A DNA stretch of 64,000 nucleotides from Hirschia sp. (GCA_002709235.1 PAQI01000010.1:200278-264277); one strand, 5' to 3'. Shown: positions 11,841-62,367, numbered from the stretch's first letter. Program-made: numbers and translations. Notes: generated by a model not told the origin, from the sequence alone.

Positions 11841-11956
11841 CCACACACCCGGCCTCGAACTTGCAACCATCAGGCGAGAAACGCCTCATCCAGTACCGTA
11901 ATATGATAGTGGATGGGCGAGTGTATCGTTTGGTGTCAAAAAGGGTCGGGTCGGGT

Positions 11957-38117: not shown

Positions 38118-41100
38118 TTAGCTCGTCAGGAAGTAGTCATCTGTGTGAGCGAACATGCCGCCGGCGTCACCGCCATACAGTGCATCCAGAACCTGAAGGT
38201 CACTTTCAAAGACTGGCATAACAGTGCCCGTCGCGAAGGATTGACCAAGGTCGGTGATCATCTGCACGGAGGAGACATCCGCACGCTGACCGAAGGCTGC
38301 ATCCAGCAGGAAGTCAGATGGTCCACCAGTTTGCTGACCTGCGTCACTGGAAGAGCTGCTGTCTGCGGAGCTGGACCTGGCCATTGGCCCGATTGATGAC
38401 ATCGCCGACGAGGCCGGGGAGCTTGGTGCCTCGTAGAAGAACACGGCGGTCCCTTCAGCTGTATCACCTTCATCATCCTGAATGACATATTGGAAGGTGA
38501 TCGGGTTTGCAGAGAAGTCATAGTTCGGTGCGGTGAAGGTGAAGTCACCATTCGATGACAGTGTCAGCGTTCCTTCGCTTACCCATTGGCTTGGGTAGAG
38601 GAAGGTGACCGTACCACCATCAGGGTCGAAGTCAGCTCCATTGCCATTGTCGGCCAGTACATTTCCACTGACTGAACCACCAGCGCTGAGGTAGAACTCG
38701 TCATCCACAGCTATCGGCAACACATCAACCGGTTCGACAGTGAAGGTCGCAACAGCCGTGCTGGTCTCCGCACCATCGGTCAGCGTGTAAGTGAATGTGT
38801 CTTCACCGTAATAGCCGACAGCCGAGGTGTAGGAAATTGCACCCGTTTCGTCGATTGTCACACTACCACCATTTGCAGTGGTCCCGGAGGCTGCGACGAC
38901 CGAGATGGCATCGCCATCAATGTCGAAATCAACACCATTGCCATTGTCAGCCAGGACGTTGAACGCATTGGTCGTTCCATCGCCAGGTACTGTGAAGGCA
39001 TCGTCCACGGCAGTTGGTGCATCATTGACGGGCGTAACCGCAATGGTGACCACTTGAGTGACCTGAGAATTGGCTTCACCGGCACCATCATCGAAGACCA
39101 GCGTGGCAGCGACAGGGCCTGTAAAGTCTGCTGGTGGCGTCCAACTCAATGGCTGGCCGCGATCCACTACAATGGTCTCGTCAGCAATACCCGAGATTTC
39201 CGGATAGGTCAGCGTTATGGTGAGGTTGACCTCGTCTCCATCAACATCAGACGTATAGGCATCCAGATAGGCATTGATTTCAGCAACCGTTGCGTCGACA
39301 GGCGTATCTTCTTCCGTTGGCAGGATAAGGCCAGTCAGATCAGCAACCACAGGTGCATCATTGACAGGAAGAACCGTGAGCGTGGCCTGCTTCGTGGTCG
39401 ACAATTCACCGTCATCAGCCAGGACCGTCAGGGTGATGTCACCATTATAGTCCTGAGGCGGTGTCCAGCTGAAGTCTTCAGCCGGGTTCACGACAATGAC
39501 TTCTTCTGCCAGTCCGCTCTCGACCGGATATGTGAAGGTCAGGGAAACGGTAACGACGTCCCCATCAACATCAGCAACCAGTGCACCAAGATAAGCCTGG
39601 ATTTCCGCCGGAGTGGCTTCAACCGTTTCGTCTTCGTCGAGTGTCAGGTCGAGACCTGAGAGATCGGCGATGACCGGTGCATCATTGACATTGGTGATGT
39701 TCAGCGTCTGCGTCACATTTTCCAACAGTCCTGATTTTCCATCCGAAACAGTGTAGGTCAGCGTCAGTGCACCTGTGAAGTTCTGGGTGGTGACAACTGT
39801 GTAGCTTCCATTGCGATTATCAACGACACCGCCATTGGAAGAGGAAATCGACGTGATCTGCATCGCGTCACCTTCCGGGTCAGTCAGTCCCTCAAGCAAT
39901 TGTGCTTCGGAAACAACCGTTGGTGTGTCTTCGATACCATTGGTCAACACTGCGGTTGGTGTGCCCGTTGGTCCCTGGTTGGTGTCAGGGATGGAGAGCG
40001 TGAAGGTGACAGGTGTACTGTCGACTTCACCGTCATTGGCAGTGATCGTGATGTCGAACTCACCCCAGAGGTCAGGGTCAGTCGGGTTGATGGTCAGCGT
40101 GGAACCGTCCAGCGTTGTGAACAGTGCAGCCTGACCAGCTGTCAGGGTGAAGCTCAGGTCATCGCCATCGATGTCGAAGAAGGCTGAGTCAAGATTGATG
40201 GCAATCTCGGAGTTCAGATCCAGCGCGAAATCGAACAGGTAGCCCTGTGGTGCCGAGTTTGGCGGCAGGGTTGTGACCGTGATGTCAGCATCGACAGAGT
40301 CTTCGCCATCTGTTGCCGTAATGGTCAGTTCGAAATCGCCAGCATTGGCCGGGTCAATCGTCAGTGTCGCACCATCAAGAGTTGCGACAGCTGCATCTGC
40401 TCCACCCAGTGAGAAGGTGAGAGCATCTGAATCAGCGTCAGAGAAGAAGTTGTTCAGATCGATGACAAGTGGCTCACCCAGATCCATGGTCAGGTCACCA
40501 AGCGTGGTTTCCGGAGCATTGTTGGGGAAGTTGGCCGTGACGTTGAAGATGACAGGCTCGCTGTCCACAGCACCATCATTGGCAGTGACGGACAGTCCGT
40601 AAGTGCCGACTGCCTGCGGGTCGATGGTCAGCGTGGAGCCGTCCAGTGACGCAATTGCAGCACCTCCACCAGAGAGGCTGAAGGTCATTTCGTCGCCATC
40701 AGCATCCGTGAACAGGGTCAGCAGGTCGAGAACAACCGGCGTGCCGATTGTGGCGTTGACATCGTCAATGTCACCGGTCGGAGCTGAATTGTCTGGAGCA
40801 GCCGTGACCGTGAAGCTCACCGGATCACTGTCGTCTTCACCGTCATTCGCTGTGACAGTGAGTTCAAAGTCACCAGCTGTTTGTGGGTCGAGTGTCAGTG
40901 TAGAGCCGTCCAGGGATGCAATAGCAGCACCTGCACCCGATACCGAGAACGTCAATGCATCACCATTGGCATCGGTGAACAATGTCGACAGGTCCAGCAC
41001 AACCGGCGTGCCGATTGTGGCGTTGACGTCGTCAATGTCACCTGTCGGAGCAATGTTTGCTTCTTCAGCCGTGACGGTGAAGGAGACAGGAGCACTGTCT

Positions 41101-44100
41101 GCCGTGCCATCATTGGCAGTCACGATCAGCTCGAAATTGCCTTCGACAAACGGATCGATTGTGAGGGTTGATCCGTCGATTGAAGCAATCGCTGCACCTG
41201 CTCCAGACAGGCTGAAGGTCAGGGCGTCACCGTCGACATCCGTGAATACGGTTGTCAGGTCAATGATGACCGGTGTGCCCAGTTCAGCAGTCACGTCGTC
41301 AATGGATCCGGTTGGGGCCGTATTGGGTGGCGTGGTTTCGCCAACTGGGGTGAATGTCAGCTTGTCGACACGTGCCCATTCAGCATTGTCACGCGCCCCT
41401 GTGATCTCGATGACGTCGCCGTTCTCGATCTCAAGACCTTCCACCGTGTAGGTCATCAGGCTGCCAGCATTTGCAGCATTGGAACCTGTGTCTGTGTTCA
41501 TGACGATCGTGGCCACGAGCACACCATCGACGCGGATCTCCAGAGGAGACTGGCCGTCGGCTTCGTCGAAGACTGCAAGATCGAGGTCGAACGTGCCGTT
41601 GTCACCAGCCCATGTGTACATCATGGTTCCGGTCGTTGGCGAACCTTCAACTGTTCCAGTGAACAGGCCAGCATATTCGCCGCCAGAAGCTGCTGCGCTC
41701 GTTTCGACGACATAGCCGTCGAGAACCAGGTCTTCAGCTTCGATTACGACAGGCTCACCAGTCGGAGTTGGTGTCGGCGTGGTCAATTCGCCGGTCTGGG
41801 CGAAAGCCAGCTTGTCGATACGAACTTCTTCATTGTTGTTCTTTGTACCAACCAGTTCGATTACATCACCCGTACGCAGTTCCAGACCTGGGATCGGAAA
41901 CTCCTTGAGCGTGCCGCTGGTCATGTAACCGGCGGATGTGGCTCCATCCATGTCGATGGTGGCAACCAGTTCGTCATTCACAAAAATGTCGATGGAGGCT
42001 GCGCCATCATTTTCGTCAAAGGCCGAGAGGGTCAGCGTGTAGACGGCATCGCCACCAGCAAATGTGTAAGCCAGCGTGCCTTCTGTTGCGCCGCTGTTGA
42101 ACAGCGATGCAACTGCACCTTCAGATGCCAGGCCGGTGTTCTCGACGATGAAGCCTTCAGCGATGATGCTTTCGGCCTCGACTTCGAAGGTTTCACCAAC
42201 GGGTGTTGGCAGGGTAGCGGAGACAGTGAAGGTAACAGGCGCGCTGTCCACTGTGCCGTCATTGGCTGTCACGGTCAGGGCGAAATCGCCTGCTGCGGCT
42301 GGGTCGATGGTCAGTGTGGAACCATCAATGGAACCAGCGGCTGCACCTGCACCAGAAAGCGTGTAGGTGAGGGCGTCACCGTCAATGTCGCTGAATGCTG
42401 CATCCAGATCGATGGTGATGGGTGTGCCGACGACCGCGTCAACATCTGCAATGTCACCGGTTGGTGCCGTGTTGGTTGGTCCTGGCGTGCCGTCAATCGG
42501 CGTGAAGGTCAGCGTGTCGATACGTACCCACTCATCGGCATTTTGCGTCGCCGCGATCTGGATCGTGTCGCCAGCTTCAAGGCTGAGACCAGCGATGGTG
42601 AAGTCCAGCAGATTGCTGGCTTTCATGCCGCCAGAGTTTGTCGAATTGTTCATCGTGATGGTCTGGACCAGCGAGCCATTGACCAGGACATCGAACGAGC
42701 TTGCACCGTCATTCTCATCAAAGGCTGCGATCGTCAGGTCATATGTGCCCTCACCACCAGCGAATGTGTAGGCGAGCGTGCCGGATGTGTTGCCACTGTT
42801 CAGCAGCGACGCGACCTGGCCATCGGAGGCCGGCGAAGAGTTCTCGACAATGAAGCCATTGGCGATGATGTCTTCGGCTTCAACAACAATCGTGCTGCCA
42901 CCTGCAACTGGAGCCGTTGCAGACACTGTGAAGGTCACAGGCGCACTGTCGACCGTGCCGTCATTTGCCGTGACAGTGATGTCATAGCTGCCTGCCGCAA
43001 AGGCGTCGACCGTAAGCGTTGATCCATCAAGGCTAGCAATCGAGGCCCCTGGACCAGAGATCGAGAATGTCAGCGCATCGTCGTCCGCGTCAGTGAAGAG
43101 CGTGGAGAGGTCAAGTGTGACAGGTGTACCGACAACAGCGTTTACGTCAGCAATGTCGCCTTCTGGTGCGGTGTTGGTCGGGGTTGGAGCCGGGGTGGTG
43201 TCACCTTCAGGTGTGAAAGTGAGCTTATCGACACGTGCCCATTCTGCGTTGTCGCGGTTACCCGTGATTTCGACAATGTCACCTGATTCCAGCGAGAGAC
43301 CGGCAACCGAGTAGGTGATCAGGCTGGCTGCATTGGCAACGCCCGAACCCGTGTCAGTATTCATAGAGACAGTTTCGATCAGGACGCCATTCACGCGGAC
43401 CTCGAGGGTCGAGTTACCGTCTGATTCGTCAAACACATCCAGGTAGAGCGTGTAGTCGCCTGCACCGCCTGTGAATGTGTAGGTCATGGTGCCTGTCGTT
43501 GGCGAACCTTCAACCGTACCGGTGAACAGTCCGGCATATTCGCCACCGGAAGCAGCACCGCTGGTTTCTACCACATAGCCATTCAGGACCAGGTCTTCAG
43601 CTTCCACAACAATGGATTCGCCCGTAGGGGTTGGAGCCGTTGCAGACACTGTAAAGGTCACAGGTGCGCTGTCGACCGTGCCGTCATTTGCCGTGACGGT
43701 GATGTCGAAGCTGCCTGCTGCCGAAGCATCGAGAGTCAGTGTCGAACCATCAAGGCTAGCAATCGAGGCGCCTGGACCAGAGATCGAGAATGTCAGCGCA
43801 TCGTCATCCGCGTCAGTGAAGAGCGTGGAGAGGTCAAGCGTGACGGGCGTGCCGACAACAGCGTTTACGTCAGCAATGTCGCCTTCTGGTGCGGTGTTGG
43901 TCGGTGTCGGAGCCGGTGTGGTGTCACCTTCAGGTGTGAATGTCAGCGTGTCGATACGAACCCATTCATTGGCGTTCTGTGTCGCCATGATCTGAACGAG
44001 GTCGCCAGCTTCCAGGCTTAGGCCGGTAACTGTGAAGTCGAGCAGGTTGCTGGCTTTCAGTGCGCCAGAGCCCGTTGCGTTGTCCATTGTAAGCGTTTGA

Positions 44101-44834
44101 ACGAGCGTGCCATTGACCAGGACGTTCAGCGTGCTTGCGCCATCGTTTTCGTCAAAGGCTGCAATGGTCAGTGTGTAGTCACCTGTTCCACCGCCAAATG
44201 TGTAGTTGAGCGTGCCGGAAGTGCCGCCACTGTTCAGCAGGGACGCAACCTCACCGCCTGATGCCAGGCCAGTTGCCTCGACGACAAAACCGTTGGCAAT
44301 GATGCTTTCCGCTTCAATGACGAGGGGCTCGGCTGAAGGTGTGGGGGTAGGCGTAGGAGCTGGTGTTGGGGTGACTTCACCCAGCGGTGAAAAGGTCAGC
44401 TTGTCGACGCGCGCCCATTCAGCAAGGTCTCTGGAACCGGTGATCGTGATCACGTCACCGAATTCAAGGTCCAGGTCGTTGAGTGTGTAGGAAATCAGGG
44501 ACGTTGCGGACACACCACCATCACCGGTGTTGGTGTTCATCACAACCGTGTCGATCAGTGTGCCATTGATACGCACTTCAAGAGGCGAGGCACCGTCGTT
44601 CTCGTCATAGACAAAAAGCTCCAGATCATAAGCACCGTCGCCACCTTCAAATGTGTAGGTGAGTGTTCCGGATGTCGGAGAGCCGTCGACTGAGCCATTG
44701 AACAGGGAGGCATAGGAGCCACCTGAGGCTGAGCCGTGGTCCGCGACCACATATCCATTTGTGATAATGTCTTCGGCTTCAATAGTAAGAACGCCGGTTG
44801 CTTCGTCAATTGAGCTTATTGTGCCGTCGGCCAT
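38118..44834 (-). CDS. Giant secreted repeat protein with novel beta-module repeats, cadherin-like/Ig domains, VCBS-like repeats and a shared C-terminal domain
   Basis: The 2238 aa protein has six ~145 aa modules of the form IEAEDxxxNGxVVE..ASGG..A.LxN...GTLxYTF.GG.G.YDL.L..FDE.DG.S.L.V.VNG.L....M......NAEWARVDKLTF. These are separated by PT linkers and about 9 ~90 aa domains of the form NTAPxGDIxDVxAxxGTPVxLDLSxLFTDADGDALTFS.SGxGAxIASLDGSTLTxDP..AG.F.LTVTANDG..DS.PV.F.V.A, typical of dystroglycan-type cadherin-like (putative Ig) domains. PVNDAP-type repeats follow, then a Ser-rich linker and a ~110 aa C-terminal domain. The ORF is continuous in the six-frame track, and its shadow ORFs on the + strand were rejected. 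Confidence 0.85.
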   Translation of the reverse strand: MADGTISSIDEATGVLTIEAEDIITNGYVVADHGSASGGSYASLFNGSVDGSPTSGTLTYTFEGGDGAYDLELFVYDENDGASPLEVRINGTLIDTVVMNTNTGDGGVSATSLISYTLNDLDLEFGDVITITGSRDLAEWARVDKLTFSPLGEVTPTPAPTPTPTPSAEPLVIEAESIIANGFVVEATGLASGGEVASLLNSGGTSGTLNYTFGGGTGDYTLTIAAFDENDGASTLNVLVNGTLVQTLTMDNATGSGALKASNLLDFTVTGLSLEAGDLVQIMATQNANEWVRIDTLTFTPEGDTTPAPTPTNTAPEGDIADVNAVVGTPVTLDLSTLFTDADDDALTFSISGPGASIASLDGSTLTLDASAAGSFDITVTANDGTVDSAPVTFTVSATAPTPTGESIVVEAEDLVLNGYVVETSGAASGGEYAGLFTGTVEGSPTTGTMTYTFTGGAGDYTLYLDVFDESDGNSTLEVRVNGVLIETVSMNTDTGSGVANAASLITYSVAGLSLESGDIVEITGNRDNAEWARVDKLTFTPEGDTTPAPTPTNTAPEGDIADVNAVVGTPVTLDLSTLFTDADDDALTFSISGPGASIASLDGSTLTVDAFAAGSYDITVTANDGTVDSAPVTFTVSATAPVAGGSTIVVEAEDIIANGFIVENSSPASDGQVASLLNSGNTSGTLAYTFAGGEGTYDLTIAAFDENDGASSFDVLVNGSLVQTITMNNSTNSGGMKASNLLDFTIAGLSLEAGDTIQIAATQNADEWVRIDTLTFTPIDGTPGPTNTAPTGDIADVDAVVGTPITIDLDAAFSDIDGDALTYTLSGAGAAAGSIDGSTLTIDPAAAGDFALTVTANDGTVDSAPVTFTVSATLPTPVGETFEVEAESIIAEGFIVENTGLASEGAVASLFNSGATEGTLAYTFAGGDAVYTLTLSAFDENDGAASIDIFVNDELVATIDMDGATSAGYMTSGTLKEFPIPGLELRTGDVIELVGTKNNNEEVRIDKLAFAQTGELTTPTPTPTGEPVVIEAEDLVLDGYVVETSAAASGGEYAGLFTGTVEGSPTTGTMMYTWAGDNGTFDLDLAVFDEADGQSPLEIRVDGVLVATIVMNTDTGSNAANAGSLMTYTVEGLEIENGDVIEITGARDNAEWARVDKLTFTPVGETTPPNTAPTGSIDDVTAELGTPVIIDLTTVFTDVDGDALTFSLSGAGAAIASIDGSTLTIDPFVEGNFELIVTANDGTADSAPVSFTVTAEEANIAPTGDIDDVNATIGTPVVLDLSTLFTDANGDALTFSVSGAGAAIASLDGSTLTLDPQTAGDFELTVTANDGEDDSDPVSFTVTAAPDNSAPTGDIDDVNATIGTPVVLDLLTLFTDADGDEMTFSLSGGGAAIASLDGSTLTIDPQAVGTYGLSVTANDGAVDSEPVIFNVTANFPNNAPETTLGDLTMDLGEPLVIDLNNFFSDADSDALTFSLGGADAAVATLDGATLTIDPANAGDFELTITATDGEDSVDADITVTTLPPNSAPQGYLFDFALDLNSEIAINLDSAFFDIDGDDLSFTLTAGQAALFTTLDGSTLTINPTDPDLWGEFDITITANDGEVDSTPVTFTLSIPDTNQGPTGTPTAVLTNGIEDTPTVVSEAQLLEGLTDPEGDAMQITSISSSNGGVVDNRNGSYTVVTTQNFTGALTLTYTVSDGKSGLLENVTQTLNITNVNDAPVIADLSGLDLTLDEDETVEATPAEIQAYLGALVADVDGDVVTVSLTFTYPVESGLAEEVIVVNPAEDFSWTPPQDYNGDITLTVLADDGELSTTKQATLTVLPVNDAPVVADLTGLILPTEEDTPVDATVAEINAYLDAYTSDVDGDEVNLTITLTYPEISGIADETIVVDRGQPLSWTPPADFTGPVAATLVFDDGAGEANSQVTQVVTIAVTPVNDAPTAVDDAFTVPGDGTTNAFNVLADNGNGVDFDIDGDAISVVAASGTTANGGSVTIDETGAISYTSAVGYYGEDTFTYTLTDGAETSTAVATFTVEPVDVLPIAVDDEFYLSAGGSVSGNVLADNGNGADFDPDGGTVTFLYPSQWVSEGTLTLSSNGDFTFTAPNYDFSANPITFQYVIQDDEGDTAEGTAVFFYEAPSSPASSAMSSIGPMARSSSADSSSSSDAGQQTGGPSDFLLDAAFGQRADVSSVQMITDLGQSFATGTVMPVFESDLQVLDALYGGDAGGMFAHTDDYFLTS

Positions 44835-45324
44835 GGTAGATCCCCACCCTAGGTAAGATACTGAACAATTGACGCCAAAATCTCATGTTAGGGAATTGTT
44901 TACTACCTGATTCAACTCGATGGTGTGCAAATAATATGTATTTCCGGTAATATACCTTTTGACGCGAATATTAGGCATATTGCTTAACCCTAACAGGGAA
45001 AATGAATGCCTGTTGGTTTATGAAAATATAATATAATTCAGTAATTTAGATGAAAATTTACTGCTAATTATTTGGAATGGGGGTGGTTATTGTTAATTCT
45101 CCATAAATGCGTTTAACGTCGATCAAATACTCCCGTCAGGTTGAGTTTATAACGTATAAATCTCCTGCTGAGTGAAGAGGCTTGTGCTCTTTACATTAAA
45201 GGTCTGGAGACAGTTTTCCATATGCGGGTTTGAGGGCGGAACTGGTCTGATCATTGCTAGATAGGACCGACAGGATGCAACCGTTTCGCCCCGTTGGGGA
45301 ATAAACACTCGCGTCCTCCGATTA
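44835..45324. promoter_or_regulatory. AT-rich divergent promoter/regulatory region between the two giant genes
   Basis: The 490 bp region is markedly AT-rich (about 35% GC vs about 58% in the window; eyeballed, not computed). It contains many A/T tracts and lies between divergently transcribed giant ORFs. Confidence 0.4.
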
Positions 45325-48300
45325 TTGAGCCATTGCGGTACGTGGAGGTACATTGGCATGAGTGAGATCGCTGATATCGGCACCGGGCTGACCGAGGTTG
45401 AGACGCTTACGCTCTCGGGAAGCTATGAAGTCGAGACAGTAACCGGGGCATCTGGTGGTGCCGTGGTGCAAACTCTCAGCGATGTGAGTGCAGGCCAGGC
45501 TATAGGTATCTTTAATGGTGCCGCAGGTACTTATGAGTTCACAATAAACTATATAGACGGCGCAAACGGTGCCTCTGATATTGTTGTGCTGGTCAATGGC
45601 GGCGCAGTTCACTCCTGGGCAGCCAATGGTACCGCAGGCGCAGCCAGCGAAGTTTTCCAGCTCGAATTGTCACCCGGCGACGAGATCTCGATCTCCGGTG
45701 TCAAGGATGGCGATGACCTGGCGCGTCTGGACTCGATCAACCTGTCTCCGGTTGGTACGATGACCGAGCCAGCGAGTTTCACAATCGAAGCCGAGGATAT
45801 TATCGGTGCCGGATATGTCGTGGAAACCTCCACCAAGGCATCAGGCGGAAAACTGGCATCGCTCTTTGACGGCTCGACAGCAAATTCTGCCACCTCCGGC
45901 ACGCTTAGCTACACATTCGACCAGACCGCAGGCATCTACGATCTTGATCTGACCGTTTTCGACGAGTCCGATGGCGCATCGACAATTGATGTGCGGGTCA
46001 ATGGCGAACTTATCACGACATTTACACTCGATGCACCGACCAGCTCGGCTGGTGTGTCGAACAACAGCAGACTTGTCTACTCCGCCGAAGGGTTGGAGCT
46101 GCAGGCAGGCGATTTGATCGAATTAACAGGCAATCAGGACAGTGGCGAATGGGCACGTATCGACAAGCTCGACTTCGTCGCCATTGAGGGAATCATGACC
46201 AGCGAACCGACAACAACAGAACTACCATCCAGCGAAACAGCATCAAGCGGTCCGACGCCGACCAGTAGCGCGCTGGCAGCAGGTGATCTGATCATCGGCC
46301 TGAATGAAGCCGAGGACATGCTCTTGTCCGGCGGTTACACGGTGGAAAACAGTGCGATCTATGCCAATGGGCAAGGCGTTCAAAATGCAGATGTCGGCCA
46401 GACCGTCGGCACCATTGAGGGCACTTTCACGGGCGCTGCCGGTGACTATGAACTGACGGTCGCATATTATGACGAAAGCGATGGAGAAGCTGACTACATC
46501 CTGCTGATCAATGGCTCTGCCGTTGACAGCTGGAGCGGTACTGGCGGCACGTCCATTGAAGGCGACAGGGTAGAACGCACGATTTCTGTCACGCTGACGG
46601 GCAATGACACCATTGAAATCGCAACCCACCGCAATGACAATGGCGAACTGGCACGCATCGACTCCATCGCAATCGAGTCTGCATCCACAACACCAACACC
46701 AACGCCGACTCCCACGCCTACGCCTACACCGACCCCAGCGCCTACACCGACAGGCGAACCGGTTGTTGTGCAGGCTGAAGACATCATCAGCGGCGCTGGT
46801 TATGTGGTTGAAACACACAATGCGGCTGCGGGTGGTGAATTTGCCTCGCTCTTCAACGGCACGGTCGCCAACTCGGCCAGTTCCGGCAAGTTGAGCCACA
46901 CCTGGACAGGTGACACCGGCACTTACGAACTCGTCCTGGATGTCTTTGATGAAGCCGACGGCAATTCCACATTGGAAGTCCGCGTGAATGGCGTCCTGAT
47001 CGACACGGTCACGATGGACACCAACACGAATGTGAACGGCTATAACGCCAACAACCTGATCTCCTACACGGTCGAGGGACTTTCGCTCACATCCGGTGAT
47101 GTTGTTGAAATCACAGGTAACCGCGAGAACGCCGAATGGGCGCGCGTGGACCAGTTGACATTCAACCCTGTCGACACCGGCACACCGACTCCCACGCCAA
47201 CCCCTACACCGACGCCAACGCCGACAAACACGCCGCCAGAAGGCGACATCAATGACGTCAACGCTGTTGTCGGTACACCGGTCACCATTGATCTGGACAG
47301 CCAGTTCAGCGATCTGGACGATGATGCACTGACATATGTCCTGTCCGGCTCCGGCGCATCTGTCGCAACCTTGAACGGCTCGACACTGACCATTGATCCT
47401 TCGGCAGCAGGCAATTACACGCTGACCATCACTGCCAATGACGGCACCGACGACAGCGCGCCTGTGACCTTTACAGTATCTGCGACGTCGCCCACGCCGA
47501 CCAGCGGCCCGATCATCCTCGAAGCAGAGGACATGATCTCCAATGGCTTCGTGATCGAGAACACATCAGTGGCCTCCGAAGGCCAGGTTGCATCCCTGCT
47601 GAATTCCGGTGGAACAACCGGAACGCTGTCTCACACCTTTGCAGGTAGCGCAGGCACCTATGACCTGACAGTGGCCGCATTTGATGAAAATGACGGCGCT
47701 GCAACAATCGATGTTCGTGTGAATGGCGTGCTGATCGACACCATTTCGATGGACAACAACACTTCCTCCGGTGGTCTGAAATCCTCCAACCTGCTCGACT
47801 TCACCGTTTCCGGCCTCGAACTTGAAGCAGGGGATGTTGTCGAGCTGATCGGACATCAAAACTCAGGCGAATGGGTGCGCATCGATACGGTCACGTTCGA
47901 AGGTGTCGCCGGTTCACCAACTCCGACACCGACACCCACGCCGACGCCAACGCCGACCCCCACACCGACGCCTCTTCCTGAGCCTTTCGAGGTTGAAGCA
48001 GAATCCATCATCTCCAGCGGTTTCATCGTGGAGAACACCGGTCTGGCATCAGATGGCAAGGTTGCGTCCCTGTACAATAGTGGCGCAACACAAGGCACGC
48101 TGGCTTACACATTTGCTGGTGGCGATGCCGTCTACACACTGACCCTTTCCGCCTTTGACGAGAATGATGGTGCAGCCACTATCGACATTCTGGTCAATGA
48201 CGAACTGGTCGCAACCGTCGACATGGATGGGGCAACGTCAGCTGGCTATATGACCAGCGGCACGCTCAAACAGTTCGAGATCCCAGGTCTGGAACTGCGC

Positions 48301-51081
48301 GCAGGTGACGTGGTTGAGCTCGTCGGTACCAAGGACAATTTCGAGGAGGTCCGCATCGACAAGCTGGCCTTCGCTCCTACCGGCGAACTGTCGACACCAA
48401 CTCCAACCCCCACGCCAACACCTACGCCGACTCCAACGCCAACCGGCGAGGCAATCTCGATCGAAGCTGAAGACATGGTGCTCAATGGCTATGTCATCGA
48501 AACCCATGCAGCAGCCTCGGGCGGCGAATATGCCGGCCTGTTCAATGGCTCGGTTGAAGGTTCGCCAACAACCGGAACCATGTCTTACACCTGGACGGGC
48601 GGAAATGGCACGTTCGACCTTGACCTTGCAGTCTTCGACGAAGCGGATGGTCAGTCTCCTCTGGAAATCCGCGTCGATGGTGTGCTTGTGGCAACGATCG
48701 TCATGAACGCCGACACGGGTTCCAACGCGGCCAGCGCAGCCAGCCTGATCACCTACACGGTGGAAGGCCTGGAGATCCAGAACGGCGACGTCATCGAGAT
48801 CACGGGTTCCCGTAACAACGCTGAATGGGCCCGCGTCGACAAGCTGACCTTCACACCGGTTGGCGAAACCACGCCGACACCAACCCCAACTCCCACCAAT
48901 ACACCTCCAGAAGGTGACATTGATGATGTGGATGCGGTTGTGGGCTCGCCGGTCGTGATCGATCTGGATGCTCAGTTCAGTGATCTGGACAATGATGACC
49001 TGACCTATTCGCTCTCCGGTTCAGGCGCATCCATTGCCACGCTGAACGGCTCCAATCTGACGCTTGATCCTTCGTCCGCGGGTACCTACACGATTACCAT
49101 CACGGCCAATGACGGTTCGGACAACAGTTCGCCCGTCACCTTCACGGTGAGCGCAACGGATCCTGTCGTGACGACCGGCCCGATCGTGCTGGAAGCCGAA
49201 GACATTATTGCTTCTGGTTTCATCGTGGAAAACTCGAACCCTGCATCGGGCAATCAAGTGGCCTCGCTGCTGAATTCCGGCGCAACCACAGGCACGCTCA
49301 GCTACACCTTCGCAGGTGCAGATGGCGATTATGACCTGACATTGGCGGCGTTCGATGAGAGCGATGGCAATTCTACAGTGTTGATCCGTGTGAACGGTTC
49401 TACCGCCGCGACCATCAACTTGGATGGAAACACCAGTTCCGGCGGCATGAGCTCTGGAAACCTGCTCGACTTCACGGTCTCCGGACTGGCGCTGTCGACG
49501 GGAGATCTCGTTGAAATCGTGGGTAGCCAGAACGCTGATGAGTGGGTGCGTCTCGACACCGTGACCTTCACACCTCTGGATACCACCCCAACACCAACTC
49601 CAACCCCGACGCCAACTCCCACACCGACGCCAACGCCGACCTCTTCAGTCGATATCGGGGTGGGAACAACGCAAGCGGAAGTGCTGGAATTGTCCGGTGG
49701 TTACCAGACAGAAAACAAGACCAATTACACAAATGGTGCAGGTATCCTGAACCTGGCCAATATTGGTGAAACGGCCACGGCTTCGGGTGCTTTTACGGGT
49801 AATTCAGGTGCCTATGACATCACCGTCACCTATCTGGATGAAAGCGACGGTGAGGCCAGCTGGTCATTGCTCGTCAACGGTGTTGCGGTGGATAGCTGGA
49901 ATGGTACAGGCGGCTCCAACGCCACCGGTACACCAACAGAACGCTCCATCCTTGTCGATCTGGACCCAGGCGATGTCGTGACCGTCAGCGGTACACGCAA
50001 CGACAATGGCGAAATGGCGCGCATCGACAAGATCAACATCCAGGCACAGCAAGTCCCTGGTCTGATCTCTACCGATGTCGACTACTTCGTCTTTGCCGGT
50101 CAATCGAATGCAGAACGCCACTTCTACCGTGCGAGCGGCGACAACAGCACGGGTGATCTGGGGGCTGATGTCTTCGAGCAGACCATCACAAACCTGACAG
50201 GCTACAACACAACTGCAATCGAAGCGGCCAAGGGTGGTTCCGGGTCGAACGAAAATGCAGACCCTGACAGCTATTGGTGGAACCTGGCCACGGACCAGCC
50301 AGGTCCTGAGCTGATCGCAGCGATCAACACGATCAATGCGACGCTCGGAGCCGGTAAGGATATCGATGGTATCATCTGGTCTCAGGGTGAAGATGATGCC
50401 CGCGCCATGACCAGCGCCAGCGGTAATGCCGAGCAGGTGATTGCGGACCTCAAGACAGCCACGACCAAGGTGTTTGAATATTTCTGGTCGATCTATGGCG
50501 AGGATGTTCCGATCTTCATCCAGGAAATCGGTGATTTCCCGGAAGGTTCAGGCTTCTATTCCGATGGTCCCGTCGGTGCCCTTGAACTGGTTCGGCAGGC
50601 CCAGCAGGAACTGATTGCAGAACTGGACAATGTCTATTTCGGTGCAAGCACTGACGGTGTTGAGCAGTTTGGTGACATTCACTTCTCCGTCGCCGGATAT
50701 GGCGATATCGCAGAAGATCTCGCTGACTCTGTTGTCGACTACCTCACGCCGGGTTCCTCCACCTCGTCCATGCAGTCATTTGCAAGAGTGGCAGAACCCA
50801 CGTCAGAGAGCGCCGAGCAATCAGAATCGACGTCATCTTCTGATGGTGGACATGGTGAGTTTGCCTATATGGGAGGGGCCGGAACCGATGGGTTCCTGCT
50901 GACCAACACCAATGCGTTCGACACGCTTCCGGTATTCGTGCCGAAGACTCAGGTCGCTGAATCGCCCGATCTGGGCGGTGGGGGCGCAATGACGTTCACG
51001 CCGATGGCTGACATTTTCAGCGCAGAAGGCATGGATTTCGATCTGGGTGGAAGCCAGAACGACGACTGGTACATCATCTGA
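45325..51081 (+). CDS. Giant secreted repeat protein with novel beta-module repeats, cadherin-like domains and a C-terminal SASA/DUF303-type SGNH carbohydrate esterase domain
   Basis: The 1918 aa protein may start at ATG 45358 (MSEIADIG). It is built from two module types (an A-type like gene 1 and a B-type, LSGGYxxEN...G.FTG..G.YD.TV.Y.DESDGE....L.NG.AVDSW.GTGG...ARID.I.I) plus cadherin-like domains and PT linkers. The C-terminus (about 50050-50760) carries the GQSN, IIWSQGEDDA and DIHFS motifs of a sialate-O-acetylesterase-like SGNH hydrolase. After that comes a Ser-rich linker and a ~100 aa terminal domain homologous to that of gene 1. Confidence 0.85.
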   Translation: MSHCGTWRYIGMSEIADIGTGLTEVETLTLSGSYEVETVTGASGGAVVQTLSDVSAGQAIGIFNGAAGTYEFTINYIDGANGASDIVVLVNGGAVHSWAANGTAGAASEVFQLELSPGDEISISGVKDGDDLARLDSINLSPVGTMTEPASFTIEAEDIIGAGYVVETSTKASGGKLASLFDGSTANSATSGTLSYTFDQTAGIYDLDLTVFDESDGASTIDVRVNGELITTFTLDAPTSSAGVSNNSRLVYSAEGLELQAGDLIELTGNQDSGEWARIDKLDFVAIEGIMTSEPTTTELPSSETASSGPTPTSSALAAGDLIIGLNEAEDMLLSGGYTVENSAIYANGQGVQNADVGQTVGTIEGTFTGAAGDYELTVAYYDESDGEADYILLINGSAVDSWSGTGGTSIEGDRVERTISVTLTGNDTIEIATHRNDNGELARIDSIAIESASTTPTPTPTPTPTPTPTPAPTPTGEPVVVQAEDIISGAGYVVETHNAAAGGEFASLFNGTVANSASSGKLSHTWTGDTGTYELVLDVFDEADGNSTLEVRVNGVLIDTVTMDTNTNVNGYNANNLISYTVEGLSLTSGDVVEITGNRENAEWARVDQLTFNPVDTGTPTPTPTPTPTPTPTNTPPEGDINDVNAVVGTPVTIDLDSQFSDLDDDALTYVLSGSGASVATLNGSTLTIDPSAAGNYTLTITANDGTDDSAPVTFTVSATSPTPTSGPIILEAEDMISNGFVIENTSVASEGQVASLLNSGGTTGTLSHTFAGSAGTYDLTVAAFDENDGAATIDVRVNGVLIDTISMDNNTSSGGLKSSNLLDFTVSGLELEAGDVVELIGHQNSGEWVRIDTVTFEGVAGSPTPTPTPTPTPTPTPTPTPLPEPFEVEAESIISSGFIVENTGLASDGKVASLYNSGATQGTLAYTFAGGDAVYTLTLSAFDENDGAATIDILVNDELVATVDMDGATSAGYMTSGTLKQFEIPGLELRAGDVVELVGTKDNFEEVRIDKLAFAPTGELSTPTPTPTPTPTPTPTPTGEAISIEAEDMVLNGYVIETHAAASGGEYAGLFNGSVEGSPTTGTMSYTWTGGNGTFDLDLAVFDEADGQSPLEIRVDGVLVATIVMNADTGSNAASAASLITYTVEGLEIQNGDVIEITGSRNNAEWARVDKLTFTPVGETTPTPTPTPTNTPPEGDIDDVDAVVGSPVVIDLDAQFSDLDNDDLTYSLSGSGASIATLNGSNLTLDPSSAGTYTITITANDGSDNSSPVTFTVSATDPVVTTGPIVLEAEDIIASGFIVENSNPASGNQVASLLNSGATTGTLSYTFAGADGDYDLTLAAFDESDGNSTVLIRVNGSTAATINLDGNTSSGGMSSGNLLDFTVSGLALSTGDLVEIVGSQNADEWVRLDTVTFTPLDTTPTPTPTPTPTPTPTPTPTSSVDIGVGTTQAEVLELSGGYQTENKTNYTNGAGILNLANIGETATASGAFTGNSGAYDITVTYLDESDGEASWSLLVNGVAVDSWNGTGGSNATGTPTERSILVDLDPGDVVTVSGTRNDNGEMARIDKINIQAQQVPGLISTDVDYFVFAGQSNAERHFYRASGDNSTGDLGADVFEQTITNLTGYNTTAIEAAKGGSGSNENADPDSYWWNLATDQPGPELIAAINTINATLGAGKDIDGIIWSQGEDDARAMTSASGNAEQVIADLKTATTKVFEYFWSIYGEDVPIFIQEIGDFPEGSGFYSDGPVGALELVRQAQQELIAELDNVYFGASTDGVEQFGDIHFSVAGYGDIAEDLADSVVDYLTPGSSTSSMQSFARVAEPTSESAEQSESTSSSDGGHGEFAYMGGAGTDGFLLTNTNAFDTLPVFVPKTQVAESPDLGGGGAMTFTPMADIFSAEGMDFDLGGSQNDDWYII
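46687..46752 (+). repeat. Pro-Thr linker-encoding microsatellite-like tract (ACNCCN)n
   Basis: The tract acaccaacaccaacgccgactcccacgcctacgcctacaccgaccccagcgcctacaccgaca encodes TPTPTPTPTPTPTPAPTPT. Similar tracts occur at about 47170-47225, 47918-47973, 48395-48445, 48870-48900 and 49590-49645, and in gene 1 (for example 44290-44350). Confidence 0.8.
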
Positions 51082-52039: not shown

Positions 52040-52267
52040 TCAGAAGCGAAAAGGGCTCTTGCCCGGTCCGGTCTCAAAACCTGCCAGGTTCATCAGATGG
52101 GCCACGATCAGCAGGCTGAAGACGACCGGAATGAACGACAATAATCGCCACGGCACCATTCGCGGTTCGGGTGTGTCATTGGGCTTTCCGGCCTTCCAGC
52201 TACAGAACTGGAACCCGGCAACACCAAGAGCGATGCCGATAATACTCAGCACGATTTCGACGATCAT
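52040..52267 (-). CDS. Small two-TM membrane protein (hypothetical)
   Basis: The 75 aa protein has two hydrophobic helices. Its start overlaps the stop of the upstream GT2 gene by 4 nt (ATGA-type coupling). Confidence 0.35.
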   Translation of the reverse strand: MIVEIVLSIIGIALGVAGFQFCSWKAGKPNDTPEPRMVPWRLLSFIPVVFSLLIVAHLMNLAGFETGPGKSPFRF

Positions 52268-53739
52268 TCTGCGTGCAGACCTTCAAGATTTACCGGCGGT
52301 CGGCTGAGCCCGTGCCGCGTCTTCGCCCATTCATGTGGTCTTGATCGCATCTCCCACAAGGCCCTCATTGCAGCAATTGATTGAAGCGGCCAATAAAACG
52401 GCATGGTCAACAGGGTAGACAGGCTCAGGTCACGACACAATTGACCGCGCAATCCGACGACAGCAGCCATCGCGGCCGACAGATAGCCAGCCGACAACAA
52501 TCCCAGATAGATAAGCGTTTTCACCCCCTCGGGATGGAAGCAATGCCAGATCGTCCAGAGCAGCAAAGGCCCATGAAGGAATGACGCCACTAGCGACAGC
52601 GTGAAGGTCAGTTGCAAACCAATGAATCGGCTCACACCAATGGCGCGCATCTGGGTGAGGGGATCACGCATTATCACCAGCCAGGTCTGCAAATGTCCCT
52701 TGATCCAGCGTGAGCGCTGTTTCAGCCATTGGCCCAGTTCAACTGGCGCTTCTTCCAGAGTGACCGAGGGGATCATCGCTGATGAATATCCACCCGCCGC
52801 AAGTCGGAAGCCAAGGTCTGCGTCCTCGGTGACATTATAGGGATCCCATCCGCCAGCCGCGCGCAGTTTGGCGGCATCGAAATGATTGGAAGTTCCCCCC
52901 AGGCTCAGCGGCCAGCCCAGATCCGCGATGAAAGGCAACCAGACCTTGAACTGGATATTGTATTCCAGCGTGAACTGGCCAGCGATCCAGCTGGCATCCC
53001 GGTTATAGGGGGCCAGCTCGGCCTGCACCACTGCCAGCGTGTCATCACCATATGCAAACGCTTCCGCTGCATGTCGCAATTGTTGCGGATCAGGCAGGTC
53101 CTCGGCGTCGTAGACCGAGATGATGTCGCCAGTCGCGAGGCTCAGTCCGTAATTGAGCGCACGCGGTTTGGTGCGGGGCAGTGCATGAGGCAGGGCTATG
53201 ATATCGAAATCGAGCAGGTGTCGGCATCGGCACAATTCGCGGATCGTCTCGGTATCATCAGCTTCGACAAGATAGAGCACCTGCAATTTCTCCGCAGGGT
53301 AATCCAGCCTTGACAGCGCGCGGACAGATTGGCGCGCAACTTCCGCTTCCTTGTATAGAGGCGCGAGCAGGGTGAAGTGCGGCAGGTCATGATCTGCCAG
53401 ACTTGGCTCAGGCGGTGTATCGTCACGTAGCAGCGAGGCCAGGGCTGCAATCAGGCGCAAGCTGATATTGACGGCAAACAGAGCGGAGGTCGTGGCCACC
53501 ATGGCCAGTGCGACGGCTTGCGGGCAGATCATGAGAAACAGGCATAGCGCACCCAGAACCGCGTGAACGCCTGACCTTTGTGAGGATGTCAGCCCATGCG
53601 CTGCACTGGCATCTTCATTGGTTTCAGCCAGCAATCGGCTCGCATTGAAAAGTCTGTGTGCACGCGCGACATCAGCCTGCACAGTGTCAACGTCTTGTCT
53701 TACTGGATCGACGCTGAACGCGCGTCCTCCATCGGCCAT
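52264..53739 (-). CDS. Family-2 glycosyltransferase, membrane-integrated (processive beta-glycosyltransferase-like)
   Basis: The GT-A motifs are DAED (DxD) and QRSRWIKG (QxxRW). TM helices flank the catalytic domain, as in PgaC/BcsA/NdvC-type synthases. Confidence 0.78.
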   Translation of the reverse strand: MADGGRAFSVDPVRQDVDTVQADVARAHRLFNASRLLAETNEDASAAHGLTSSQRSGVHAVLGALCLFLMICPQAVALAMVATTSALFAVNISLRLIAALASLLRDDTPPEPSLADHDLPHFTLLAPLYKEAEVARQSVRALSRLDYPAEKLQVLYLVEADDTETIRELCRCRHLLDFDIIALPHALPRTKPRALNYGLSLATGDIISVYDAEDLPDPQQLRHAAEAFAYGDDTLAVVQAELAPYNRDASWIAGQFTLEYNIQFKVWLPFIADLGWPLSLGGTSNHFDAAKLRAAGGWDPYNVTEDADLGFRLAAGGYSSAMIPSVTLEEAPVELGQWLKQRSRWIKGHLQTWLVIMRDPLTQMRAIGVSRFIGLQLTFTLSLVASFLHGPLLLWTIWHCFHPEGVKTLIYLGLLSAGYLSAAMAAVVGLRGQLCRDLSLSTLLTMPFYWPLQSIAAMRALWEMRSRPHEWAKTRHGLSRPPVNLEGLHAE

Positions 53740-57375: not shown

Positions 57376-58149
57376 TCAGTTCACGGATGAAAAGTCAGCA
57401 TTCGCCGTTGAGAAATAGCTCGACCAGAATGCCTTCACATCACTCATGGGCAGGTCATAGCTCTGGCGCGGCACGATGCGGGCGACGACTTGCGCACCTC
57501 CAGTGTCGCGTACATCCTGAGCCAGCCGGGATGTCGAGAATGTCTCGAAATCGGCTCCCATGCGGTAGAAATTGAAGTTCTCCGAATTCTGGATCAGATC
57601 CGAGATGATCACCACGCGGCGCTTGTCACCCGGAGGGCTGAAATCAGCCCGGTCGAAGATCGAGTGAATGGCCTCGGCCAGTGGGGAGGAGGGCGCAACC
57701 TGATCTTCCAGCACCGTGCGCACAGCTGCGTTCAGCGGATCACGAAACTGCATACGCCAATTGTCCTCCACCATGCGTGGGTTCTCGAAGAACGGATTGG
57801 CAGCGTCGGCTGATCCTGTTGAACACTGCGAAAAGACCTGCTGGGGATCATAAGGGTTCTTCACATTTGGCGTCATCACCGTCAGACGCCCATATTTGGG
57901 CAATTGACGCGCTTCCTGGTCGATAAACGCTTCAACCCACCCAAAATCATTGGTGCTGAACGGATCTGACTGGTCGATCAACAGGACCGTATGCGCTGGG
58001 TCGCGGTGATCGGTACGGCACGCCGTTTGCGGATCTGTGGCGGGTGGCATGTTCAGCGCGACGACGGCAAACAATCCGAAAACTGCGCCGAGCATCGCGA
58101 CAATCGACCAGCGCCAGAATGCCTTGGATTTTTCGCGTTTGCGGGCCAT
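57376..58149 (-). CDS. Hypothetical membrane-anchored periplasmic protein (second gene of uncharacterised two-gene operon)
   Basis: The 257 aa protein has an N-terminal TM anchor (WRWSIVAMLGAVFGLFAVVAL). The periplasmic domain has VLLIDQSD and RRVVIISDLIQN beta-strand-like motifs of a possible vWA-like or alpha/beta fold. No family was recognised. Confidence 0.5.
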   Translation of the reverse strand: MARKREKSKAFWRWSIVAMLGAVFGLFAVVALNMPPATDPQTACRTDHRDPAHTVLLIDQSDPFSTNDFGWVEAFIDQEARQLPKYGRLTVMTPNVKNPYDPQQVFSQCSTGSADAANPFFENPRMVEDNWRMQFRDPLNAAVRTVLEDQVAPSSPLAEAIHSIFDRADFSPPGDKRRVVIISDLIQNSENFNFYRMGADFETFSTSRLAQDVRDTGGAQVVARIVPRQSYDLPMSDVKAFWSSYFSTANADFSSVN

Positions 58150-58160
58150 GTGTGGCTACC

Positions 58161-60393: not shown

Positions 60394-62367
60394 ATGAAAT
60401 ATCGGCCCGATATCGACGGGTTGCGGACAGTCGCGGTTGTCCCGGTCGTACTTTTTCACGTCGGTCTGGGGATGACTGGGGGCTTTGTCGGGGTCGACAT
60501 CTTCTTCGTGATTTCCGGTTTCCTGATCACTGCCATCACATGGGGTGAGATCAATGAAGACCGCTATTCCATCATAAATTTCTACGAGCGCCGCGTGCGC
60601 CGGATCTTTCCGGCCCTGTTTGCCATGATGGCCGTCACGGCGATCGTCGCCACCGCCATGTTGCTCCCGCATCATCTGGAAAGTTTCGGCAAGAGCGCGT
60701 TCGCGGCCACAGCCTTCTTCTCGAATTTGTGGTTCTATTCAACAACCGGATATTTCGCCGTCGAAGCCGAGATGCAACCCCTGCTGCACACCTGGTCACT
60801 GGCAGTGGAAGAGCAGTATTACATTGTTTTCCCGATCCTGCTCTGGGTGCTCTACAAGCTGATGCGCCCCGCAGCATTGTTCGCCGTGCTGGCAATCCTG
60901 TATGGCGTTTCCTTCTACTTTGCCCAGCGGGCCTTGATTCTGGACCCTGAAGCCGCATTCTACCTTCCGCATTTTCGCGCCTGGGAACTATTGGCGGGCT
61001 CGATGCTGGCGATCGCCATGCGTCAGGGTTGGCTCGATGCAATCTTGAAGAATTCGCTCGTCGCACATCTTCTTGGCCTGGGCGGAATGGCGGCAATCAT
61101 CTGGTCGATCTTCTGGTTCGGCGTTGAGACACCCTTTCCGGGCACGGCTGCGCTTGCACCCGTTCTGGGGACCGTAGCCATCATTGCAGCGGGAACCTAT
61201 CGCAAGAACCCGGTCAGAACGGCACTCAGCCTTCCGCCAATGGTGTTCGTCGGCAAGCTGTCCTATTCCTTCTATCTCTGGCACTGGCCGGTAATCGTGT
61301 TTGCACATTACGCACATGTCGAACCGCTGACCCTGCCGCTCAAGCTGGCCTGTGTAGGGACAGCCTTCCTATTGGCCTATATATCACTGATCTTTGTCGA
61401 GCAGCCTTTCCGCGACAAGCGCCGTATCGGCCGCACACCCATCTTCGCATCAGGCGCAGCCGCAATGGCAGTCATTTGTGGTGTTGGCGTGGGACTGGGC
61501 AAGACCGATGGCATGCCCGAGCGCGTACCGGGAGAATTTCTGGCCCTGATCGACAAGGAAAGCAAATATTACGCATTGCGCAATGCGTGCCATTTCATAA
61601 CACCCGAACGCGCCATCCGTAAGGATCTGTGTATTCGCGGCGCAGAAGGCGTCGACCCCAGCTTCATCCTGGTCGGAGACAGTCACGCAGATGCGCTGAG
61701 CCCTGCCATCTTCACGGCGGCAGAAGAACTCAACCTCTCAGGCTATCAATACACCAATTCCGGTTTCCGGCCCTTGCTCGGCGTGGAAAAACAGGGCGAC
61801 CCGGACTGGGGCGCACAGGCGAGGGCGCTGGTCATCTTCCTTGAGGCGCATCCATCCGTGGAGACTGTCTACCTCACGGGGTTCTGGGAATATCAGGCGA
61901 CCGGCTATTCATTCCGCGGCGGCGGCCACACTTTCCGCGATGAACATTATGACGGCACGCGGACCCGCTATAATGCTACAGCCATGAAGAACGGACTGTC
62001 GCGATTGGCCCAGACCTTCCCGGATCGTCGCTTCATCATTCTTGACGATGTGCCATCAGGTCATGAGATGGACCCGGAAAGGCATGTCAGGAACGCCATG
62101 TTCTCCAGCGACAAGCACTATCTGGACGCCGGAATCCACCGCGATGATGCAGAGCGCCAGCGCGCCAAATACGAGCCGATCCTCGTGGATCTGGCGCACA
62201 GGCATGACAATCTGGAATACAGACCCGTCCTGGCCGCGCATTGCATAGAGGACCATTGCCCGCTCTTCGACAATGGCAAGGCCCTCTACCGCGACGGCGA
62301 CCACCTCAGCGAAGACGGCGCCCTGCGCCTCACCCCCATCATCCGCGAACACGTCCTGATCAATTAA
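60394..62367 (+). CDS. Acyltransferase-3 family membrane O-acyltransferase with C-terminal SGNH domain (OafA/OatA-like)
   Basis: The N-terminus DIDGLRTVAVVPVVLFHVGLGMTGGFVGVDIFFVISGFLIT is a canonical AT3 motif. About 10 TM helices are followed by a ~270 aa C-terminal SGNH-like periplasmic domain. Confidence 0.85.
   Translation: MKYRPDIDGLRTVAVVPVVLFHVGLGMTGGFVGVDIFFVISGFLITAITWGEINEDRYSIINFYERRVRRIFPALFAMMAVTAIVATAMLLPHHLESFGKSAFAATAFFSNLWFYSTTGYFAVEAEMQPLLHTWSLAVEEQYYIVFPILLWVLYKLMRPAALFAVLAILYGVSFYFAQRALILDPEAAFYLPHFRAWELLAGSMLAIAMRQGWLDAILKNSLVAHLLGLGGMAAIIWSIFWFGVETPFPGTAALAPVLGTVAIIAAGTYRKNPVRTALSLPPMVFVGKLSYSFYLWHWPVIVFAHYAHVEPLTLPLKLACVGTAFLLAYISLIFVEQPFRDKRRIGRTPIFASGAAAMAVICGVGVGLGKTDGMPERVPGEFLALIDKESKYYALRNACHFITPERAIRKDLCIRGAEGVDPSFILVGDSHADALSPAIFTAAEELNLSGYQYTNSGFRPLLGVEKQGDPDWGAQARALVIFLEAHPSVETVYLTGFWEYQATGYSFRGGGHTFRDEHYDGTRTRYNATAMKNGLSRLAQTFPDRRFIILDDVPSGHEMDPERHVRNAMFSSDKHYLDAGIHRDDAERQRAKYEPILVDLAHRHDNLEYRPVLAAHCIEDHCPLFDNGKALYRDGDHLSEDGALRLTPIIREHVLIN

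Follow-up and report, generated by a model that had tools for sequence, protein, structure and literature searches.

We analyzed a 64,000-nucleotide stretch of a Hirschia sp. genome (GCA_002709235.1, PAQI01000010.1:200278-264277; hereafter, the window), in which two giant genes diverge across an AT-rich 523-bp spacer (44835-45357). We focus on the second of these, giant gene 2 (45358..51081, + strand), whose 1907-amino-acid (aa) product combines an array of predicted sugar-binding modules with a predicted SGNH-type O-acetylesterase domain. The window organism belongs to the Hyphomonadaceae near Hirschia, its PccB being 87% identical to that of H. baltica. The gene was delimited from the list of open reading frames (ORFs), the translation and public gene calls: the frame is continuous over 45325..51081 (+) and ends with the stop codon at 51079-51081. 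ATG 45358 is most likely the true start because a GGAGG motif (45344-45348) lies nine bases 5' of it and independent public gene calls also give 1907 aa; residue numbers below count from this methionine. The three peptide strings quoted from this gene in an initial annotation of the window, VDYFVFAGQSNAERHF, DIDGIIWSQGEDDA and FGDIHFSVAGYGD, are all found exactly in the translation of ORF 45325..51081. The protein is 100% identical across four separate marine metagenome assemblies, Tara Oceans samples among them, and gene 2, its repeats and the unusual active-site block described below are therefore not assembly errors. All features of gene 2 given here lie on the + strand.

The esterase domain occupies aa 1573-1799 (50074..50754), as delimited by the hidden Markov model (HMM) envelope of a profile built from the gene 2 domain and its four nearest database relatives; this falls inside the range of 50050-50760 originally claimed for it. 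The initial annotation had identified a SASA/DUF303-type domain from its motifs, and an HMM search bears this out. The isolated domain matches Pfam SASA (PF03629) with 31.1 bits (E 2.3e-7) and the whole protein with 25.8 bits, both above the cut-off of 24.8; at its best stretch, the alignment is confined to profile positions 108-224, with only the C-terminal half aligning well. A precomputed PF03629 match exists for two relatives, P0003 and P0004, while NCBIfam gave no meaningful match for either the domain or the whole giant protein. A 20-sequence family profile searched against solved structures recovered the SASA proteins 2apj (3.7e-7) and 1zmb (5.2e-7), whose GQSNM aligned onto the GQSN of the family. 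Structure comparison likewise places the SGNH alpha/beta/alpha fold of the domain nearest to solved SASA members, and its nearest solved relatives are putative acetylxylan esterases of the carbohydrate esterase family 6 (CE6) type. On these comparisons, the assignment to the SASA/DUF303-type SGNH esterases is sound; in itself, it is a routine and fairly ordinary annotation.

The predicted active site follows the SASA scheme, whose hallmark is a Gln beside the nucleophilic Ser that supplies the oxyanion hole and is positioned by the (H)QGE of block III (PMC9487903). Block I reads G1581-Q-S1583-N (Ser codon 50104-50106) and is invariant in the 20-sequence family alignment, block III reads W1674-S-Q-G-E1678 (QGE at 50383-50391), and block V reads F-G-D1773-I-H1775 (D-I-H at 50674-50682). 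Across 167 aligned family domains, the Ser is present in 117 of the 121 that cover its position, the His in 154 of 155, and the Q, G and E of block III are each kept in more than 150 of 164. The modelled order of secondary structures is also that of the family, the Ser standing after strand 1 where a helix begins, and the His before the last helix. Nucleophile (Ser1583), oxyanion Gln (Gln1582), QGE network and base (His1775) are thus all intact in the domain.

Block V is irregular. The initial annotation had listed a C-terminal D..H among the hallmarks of the domain, but the Asp is displaced by one residue: Asp1773 stands at His-2 (G-D-I-H), with Gly at His-3, so that DxxH spacing is not seen in gene 2. 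Position His-3 is Asp in 130 of 155 aligned family domains, and a distant subset of the family reads GW[IV]HY, where the Asp is absent altogether. In NanS, an active member of SASA, block V has no Asp (PMC9487903). Esterases of family CE20 combine a GQSNM block with DxH; their triad, Ser-His-(H2O)-Asp, is water-mediated and, according to mutagenesis, needed (PMC12313940). Since active CE20 esterases carry exactly DxH, the displaced Asp would be compatible with catalysis and, by analogy, does not seem to argue against it; Asp1773 would occupy the spacing that CE20 esterases use for their water-mediated triad. Three CE20 structures, Fl8CE20_II (9h4u), PpCE20_II (9ega) and XAC1771 (7kmm), are weak sequence or fold matches to the gene 2 domain or the family profile, and share with it GQSN with the oxyanion Gln as well as DxH. 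In CE20, however, an ancillary beta-sandwich is inserted in the SGNH domain, whereas the gene 2 domain is a continuous 227 aa without insertion. As an enzyme, gene 2 would be best described as a divergent SASA/CE6 member with a CE20-like DxH.

The approximately 1570 aa upstream of the esterase, first described as lectin-like and cadherin-like repeats, can be specified as nine modules with the fold of carbohydrate-binding modules (CBMs) of families 6, 35 and 36 and two immunoglobulin (Ig)/cadherin-like modules. Self-comparison of the protein revealed nine homologous modules of ~130 aa, three of an "A" and six of a "B" subtype, each subtype detecting the other; phmmer repeat mapping and alignment place them as follows. 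Module A1 (aa 5-135; 45370..45762) comes directly after the initiator methionine. It is followed by B1 (aa 146-276; 45793..46185), A2 (aa 310-441; 46285..46680) and B2 (aa 474-607; 46777..47178), the last with Pro-Thr linkers on either side. A first Ig/cadherin-like module (aa ~629-721; 47242..47520), recognized by its position between linkers and by weak Pfam matches to Big_9, He_PIG and PKD (two stretches each), separates these from B3 (aa 724-848; 47527..47901), B4 (aa 882-1008; 48001..48381) and B5 (aa 1038-1170; 48469..48867). The second Ig/cadherin-like module (aa ~1186-1278; 48913..49191) matches Big_9 with 29 bits, PKD with 26.6 and He_PIG with 21.2, and precedes B6 (aa 1281-1410; 49198..49587) and A3 (aa 1430-1565; 49645..50052), which stands directly before the esterase.

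The fold of the repeats was read from A3, whose AlphaFold2 model has a predicted local distance difference test score (pLDDT) of 87.6: in a Foldseek search with this model, the top 50 matches were all CBM35, CBM6 or CBM36 (E down to 1.6e-7, TM-score 0.6-0.72), the best of them having E ~1e-7 and TM-scores of 0.63-0.72. The module profile gave weak matches to CBM35/CBM36 sequences in the PDB, ranging from 3.1e-5 to 1e-2 (5x7o, 3.1e-5; the CBM36 structure 1ux7, 6e-3). No CBM family was reported by the Pfam scan of the giant protein, and scattered weak matches to SH3_2, DUF6805, GldM_3rd and other beta-rich repeat families were set aside in favor of the fold result. The nine homologous repeats are thus assigned to the CBM6/35/36-fold beta-sandwiches and predicted to bind sugars. 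The pair formed by A3 and the esterase is a unit conserved among relatives, occurring in the same arrangement in P0001, P0002 and P0019. Six long (Thr-Pro)n linkers separate parts of the array (46687-46776, 47179-47241, 47902-48000, 48382-48468, 48868-48912 and 49588-49644); they are encoded by near-perfect hexanucleotide repeats whose length could vary, yet the protein is identical in the four assemblies. Finally, the esterase, first annotated as fused to the C-terminus, is not the very C-terminus of the protein: a tail of 108 aa (50755..51078), acidic and Ser-rich and ending in ...NDDWYII, still lies downstream and is presumed to be a type I secretion signal.

The N-terminus of gene 2 runs straight into module A1, with no signal peptide or hydrophobic leader, and the protein has a pI of 4.05 and no Cys. 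An N-terminal hydrophobic segment is absent from 42 of the 47 close family members that start with Met. The C-termini of the family are acidic and then hydrophobic (DEFVFV, DDFLA, SDWLF, DDFIL, DILLA), whatever the position of the esterase; such an ending was found in 16 of the 25 members whose domain ends no more than 20 aa from the C-terminus, and many others are alike. An acidic-then-hydrophobic C-terminus is known as a secretion signal from the Erwinia Prt proteases. For the C-termini of the two giant proteins of the window, our claim is limited to this pattern of terminal residues. The RTX-like GGxGxD nonapeptide occurs once in gene 2, as GGAGTDGFL at aa 1839 in the tail, and forms no tandem array. 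Gene order in a Caulobacterales metagenome-assembled genome (MAG; locus L012) points to the same route: directly 3' of its esterase gene lie a PrtD-type ATP-binding cassette (ABC) transporter gene (TIGR01842, 583 bits; cut-off 510), an HlyD-type adaptor gene (TIGR01843, 327 bits) and an outer-membrane efflux gene. Type I secretion of the PrtD/PrsD class is thus probably the export route of the gene 2 protein, and the best supported one. The window itself carries a TolC-type outer-membrane gene at 11861-13360, 32 kb upstream of gene 2.

The nearest analogue of such a system is the PrsDE secretome of Rhizobium leguminosarum (PMC2275737). In Rhizobium, the glycanases PlyA and PlyB, which act on extracellular polysaccharide (EPS), and the EPS-binding Rap lectins are secreted via PrsDE, and plyA adjoins prsDE (PMC2275737). 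Like gene 2, whose secretion is predicted, these substrates are leaderless alphaproteobacterial proteins; they bind or modify the EPS of their producer outside the cell, and their genes stand beside EPS or type I secretion genes. The Rap lectins, which are cadherin-like, also resemble gene 2 in their lectin- or cadherin-like repeats. PlyA and PlyB, however, are glycanases and not esterases, and have no sequence kinship to the gene 2 esterase domain.

The esterase domain is widespread. An exhaustive HMMER search retrieved 1391 cluster representatives at E<=1e-3, of which 342 pass at <=1e-10 and 51 at <=1e-30, with the domain placed N-terminally, centrally or C-terminally in proteins of 170 to >2200 aa. 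Its partners vary: P0004 combines it with a CBM60-like module (PF16841), and several proteins of ~800-1050 aa (P0006, P0013, P0016, P0020) carry a conserved N-terminal domain starting MSKPKVLISTDIGGGDKDD. Such variety makes the esterase a mobile module in this family. P0019 (1996 aa, Pseudooceanicola) has the giant layout of gene 2 and is 49% identical over the last ~370 residues, so the giant fusion is not unique to the window; judging by length and locus, we equate P0019 with the 1997-aa ORF at locus L007 in Pseudooceanicola lipolyticus. The fusion had at first been considered unusual, a view that this same-layout protein does not sustain; fusions of CE6/SASA domains with CBM6 are known as well (FsAxe6A/B, PMC9487903).

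To describe gene neighborhoods, we used 15 loci from reference genomes other than that of the window, all alphaproteobacterial or labelled only Pseudomonadota, including Hyphomonas, Acuticoccus, Paracoccaceae, Pseudooceanicola, Hellea and Xanthobacter. Among 125 neighboring ORFs, a Pfam census counted nine glycosyltransferases of families GT4/GT1, five Acyl_transf_3 (AT3) proteins, four Wzx-type flippases and three family 2 glycosyltransferases (GT2), together with initiating sugar transferase, Wza and Wzc-like families. Read gene by gene, the Hyphomonas (L004) and Acuticoccus (L001) loci show the esterase gene embedded in an EPS cluster of the Wzx/Wzy type, with an AT3 acyltransferase gene adjoining it in L001 and ~9.5 kb off in L002-L004. 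In Pseudooceanicola, the esterase gene is followed by GT2, GT4, GT8 and a PglK/MsbA-like ABC flippase at one locus (L008) and has Wzc, GT2 and an AT3-SGNH protein in its vicinity at another (L013). Wzx/Wzy-type EPS clusters with AT3 surround family genes in Acuticoccus, Hyphomonas, Pseudooceanicola and one further MAG, which makes the extracellular polysaccharide substrate first proposed a reasonable one.

These observations suggest that gene 2 encodes a cell-surface or matrix O-acetylesterase that is exported by type I secretion, tethered to glycans and directed most likely at the acetylated EPS or capsule of its producer; we give this account a little better than an even chance. The protein would leave the cell through a PrtD/PrsD-class system with its C-terminal tail as the signal, the CBM modules would hold it on polysaccharide, and the esterase would strip O-acetyl groups from the bound polymer, so that the charge, solubility or adhesiveness of the cell's own EPS or capsule could be tuned after export. 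The case for an acetylated polysaccharide of the producer's own making as the substrate comes mainly from the placement of relatives in EPS clusters, and the producer's own EPS is favored over foreign glycans. A more specific role in the holdfast, which the initial annotation had mentioned together with EPS and capsule, was discarded, as nothing ties gene 2 to holdfast loci. The holdfast polysaccharide deacetylase HfsH is a CE4 N-deacetylase unrelated to SASA.

Several findings weigh against this account. The giant forms (in the window, L007 and L009) lie outside EPS clusters and the shorter forms inside them. The link to the producer's own EPS comes from gene neighborhood in about four of roughly ten independent lineages. 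Gene 2 is the sole case among the 167 family domains with Gly at His-3 and Asp at His-2, and the loop that carries the block V residues is modelled with lower confidence (block pLDDT 71). As for export, no ABC or adaptor gene for type I secretion was found within the 64-kb window, and a C-terminal secretion domain shared by giant proteins 1 and 2 was sought by BLASTP and rejected (E 0.096, not significant).

The same enzyme could instead act on a foreign target, such as acetylated xylan- or mannan-type glycans of algae, plants or other microbes, and serve in host attachment or foraging, which we see as possible but unlikely. Such a role would fit the CE6-type putative acetylxylan esterases that are the nearest solved relatives, the position of the giant forms outside EPS clusters, and the habitat of a marine member of the Hyphomonadaceae present in Tara Oceans metagenomes; CBM6, CBM35 and CBM36 are, moreover, typical of degraders of plant and algal glycans. 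Considered as a whole protein, gene 2 indeed resembles the CE6+CBM6 acetylxylan esterases FsAxe6A and FsAxe6B, which act together with xylanase on acetylated xylan (PMC9487903). It differs from them in being leaderless and in its ninefold CBM array, and more broadly, compared with SASA/CE6 proteins (1zmb, 2apj, NanS 3pt5 and Fibrobacter succinogenes Axe6A/Axe6B), its domain is 18-22% identical and barely over the Pfam cut-off, has Asp at His-2, and is joined to nine CBM modules instead of one in a protein without a Sec signal peptide. Against a foreign target, neither gene 2 in the window nor its relatives have genes for glycoside hydrolases, lyases or sugar uptake as neighbors, and the shorter family members are found in surroundings of EPS biosynthesis.

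The initial annotation had also proposed an acetylation/de-acetylation circuit of the esterase with two genes downstream, and a fuller version would join gene 2, a GT2 gene (52264..53739, - strand), a PAS-GGDEF-EAL gene and an AT3-SGNH gene of the OafA type (60394..62367) in one system of synthesis, acetylation and de-acetylation. The genes do lie within 11 kb of one another, the GT2 protein is multi-transmembrane, synthase-like and weakly similar to PgaC and CelA, and AT3 genes recur near family members elsewhere. However, they do not form one operon: they are on different strands, with DUF599, a threonine-aldolase-like gene and two genes without Pfam or NCBIfam match in between. Nor is the arrangement conserved. 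Synteny of DUF599, GT2, the aldolase-like gene, GGDEF-EAL, the two unmatched genes, OafA and RecQ was looked for in the 15 related loci and set aside: besides a weak match to RecQ, only a single OafA homologue turned up (L013); no homologue of the window GT2 was found there. The closest relative with a long contig (L020; PccB 92% and GT2 60% identical to the window) has the order unk540-unk257-GGDEF/EAL-GT2-DUF599-RecQ-...-Band7-MatE, the block abutting RecQ directly. It thus keeps GT2, DUF599 and GGDEF/EAL while both giant genes, OafA, a deacetylase-family gene and the threonine-aldolase-like gene are all missing from it. The divergent giant pair is therefore a lineage-specific insertion between RecQ and DUF599, and the GT2 block is older. 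Among strains with an identical giant gene, the OafA side also varies (L018). Together, L020, the variation in L018 and the lack of synteny in the 15 loci remove the comparative support for the circuit, which we hold to be improbable.

A different question is raised by phages. Of all solved structures, the one best matched in sequence by the family profile is the phage N4 tail sheath protein gp65 (residues 440-601, 4.8e-35), and 108 phage records match at 26-30% identity, including proteins named "tail sheath" in N4-like phages and "tail carbohydrate esterase" in rV5-like phages. The esterase-like domains of phage tails (N4, rV5-like, G7C gp63.1) and that of gene 2 are alike in being surface-glycan-directed modules on large modular proteins; gene 2, unlike them, belongs to a bacterial chromosome and has no phage genes in its vicinity. 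The N4 copy has GES and QGD instead of the usual motifs, and the description given of gp65 is that of a structural protein which binds the receptor, not of an enzyme with demonstrated activity. With such a relative, and with Gly in place of the canonical Asp at His-3, the gene 2 domain might be catalytically dead and serve as one more glycan-binding module, as its relative in the N4 tail sheath perhaps does; yet Ser, oxyanion Gln, QGE and His are all kept, DxH is catalytically competent in CE20 (PMC12313940) and NanS works without the Asp (PMC9487903), which leaves a dead domain very improbable. In the N4 sheath (PDB 9lc0), the SASA-like fold is apparently divided between two chains of a heterodimer, I (gp65) and M (gp64): gp65 440-601 matches blocks I-III (FAGESQ..., WGQGDQDA), and gp64 19-77 matches the C-terminal part, block V His included (..GQIHFN). 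A second, degenerate SASA-like copy lies at gp65 768-969. The N4 structure paper does not contain the term 'SGNH', and 'esterase' occurs there in a cited title.

Addition of acetyl groups by the domain, as partner of an AT3 protein, is scarcely credible: AT3 genes without a fused SGNH domain do adjoin family members in Acuticoccus and Hyphomonas, but Pfam gave no match of the gene 2 protein to transferase-type SGNH families, the SASA members named in a review are esterases or putative esterases (PMC9487903), and leaderless one-step export would bypass the periplasm, the likely site of AT3-linked acetyl transfer. Neither the sequence nor the closest fold of the domain places it in such families. 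AlgX, PatB and the C-terminal domains of OatA and OafA do share with it the SGNH fold, AT3 or MBOAT partners, a place in EPS clusters and sometimes a fused CBM, and SGNH plus CBM is also the layout of AlgX. They lack the Gln/QGE oxyanion arrangement of SASA, gave lower structural scores, and work in the periplasm or at the membrane rather than following one-step export.

Returning to a secreted esterase acting on the producer's own polysaccharide, its interest would lie less in the single gene than in the pattern across the family: leaderless export, EPS clusters and phage relatives. O-acetylation of EPS controls its solubility, charge, adhesiveness and susceptibility to phages and enzymes. 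The SGNH enzymes of bacterial surface polysaccharides compared above (AlgX, PatB, OatA/OafA) act in the periplasm or at the membrane, and a SASA esterase that has no leader, is anchored by CBMs and leaves the cell in a single step would, if real, be a different way to remodel the matrix after secretion. This type of esterase recurs in the EPS clusters of several alphaproteobacterial lineages, and the window organism is an abundant marine member of the Hyphomonadaceae. More speculatively, the subfamily of ~1,400 clusters could be an undescribed class of type I-secreted, EPS-editing esterases, encoded by marine and soil Alphaproteobacteria alongside Wzx/Wzy clusters and AT3, with acetylation laid down during synthesis being trimmed outside the cell. 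The giant version with nine CBMs would then be an enzymatically active adhesin, and the tie to N4-like tail sheaths would reflect a glycan-recognition and de-acetylation module exchanged between matrix enzymes of the host and receptor-binding proteins of phages. In its entirety, adhesin and phage exchange included, we consider this proposal doubtful. The finding of the domain in gene 2 also provides a bacterial setting for the esterase-like domain of N4-type phage tail sheaths.

Further genes of the region are described here for completeness. Giant gene 1 (38118..44834, - strand; 2238 aa) encodes a paralogous adhesin-like protein with CBM6/35-like modules at the N-terminus followed by Cadherin_4, Cadherin_5 and Big_9 repeats; it lacks both a signal peptide and an esterase, and its C-terminus reads TDDYFLTS. 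For the GT2 gene, public calls give 422 aa, starting 69 codons further in than the longest ORF (491 aa), which adds an N-terminal pair of transmembrane segments; the Joint Genome Institute labels some of its homologues 'XagB' or 'cellulose synthase/PNAG synthase-like'. The two genes without Pfam or NCBIfam match (57376-59816, - strand) encode proteins of 551 aa (544 in public calls) and 257 aa, and have a counterpart at 4977-7384 of L020. The 551-aa protein has four central transmembrane segments and long charged arms, and the 257-aa protein one N-terminal transmembrane segment; kept beside the PAS-GGDEF-EAL gene in L020, the pair may belong with the cyclic di-GMP/GT2 block. Just past the OafA-type gene lies an IS200-like Y1 transposase gene (62555-63076, + strand; Pfam Y1_Tnp, 24.3 bits), in a region that differs between strains (L018 versus L016, L017 and L019).

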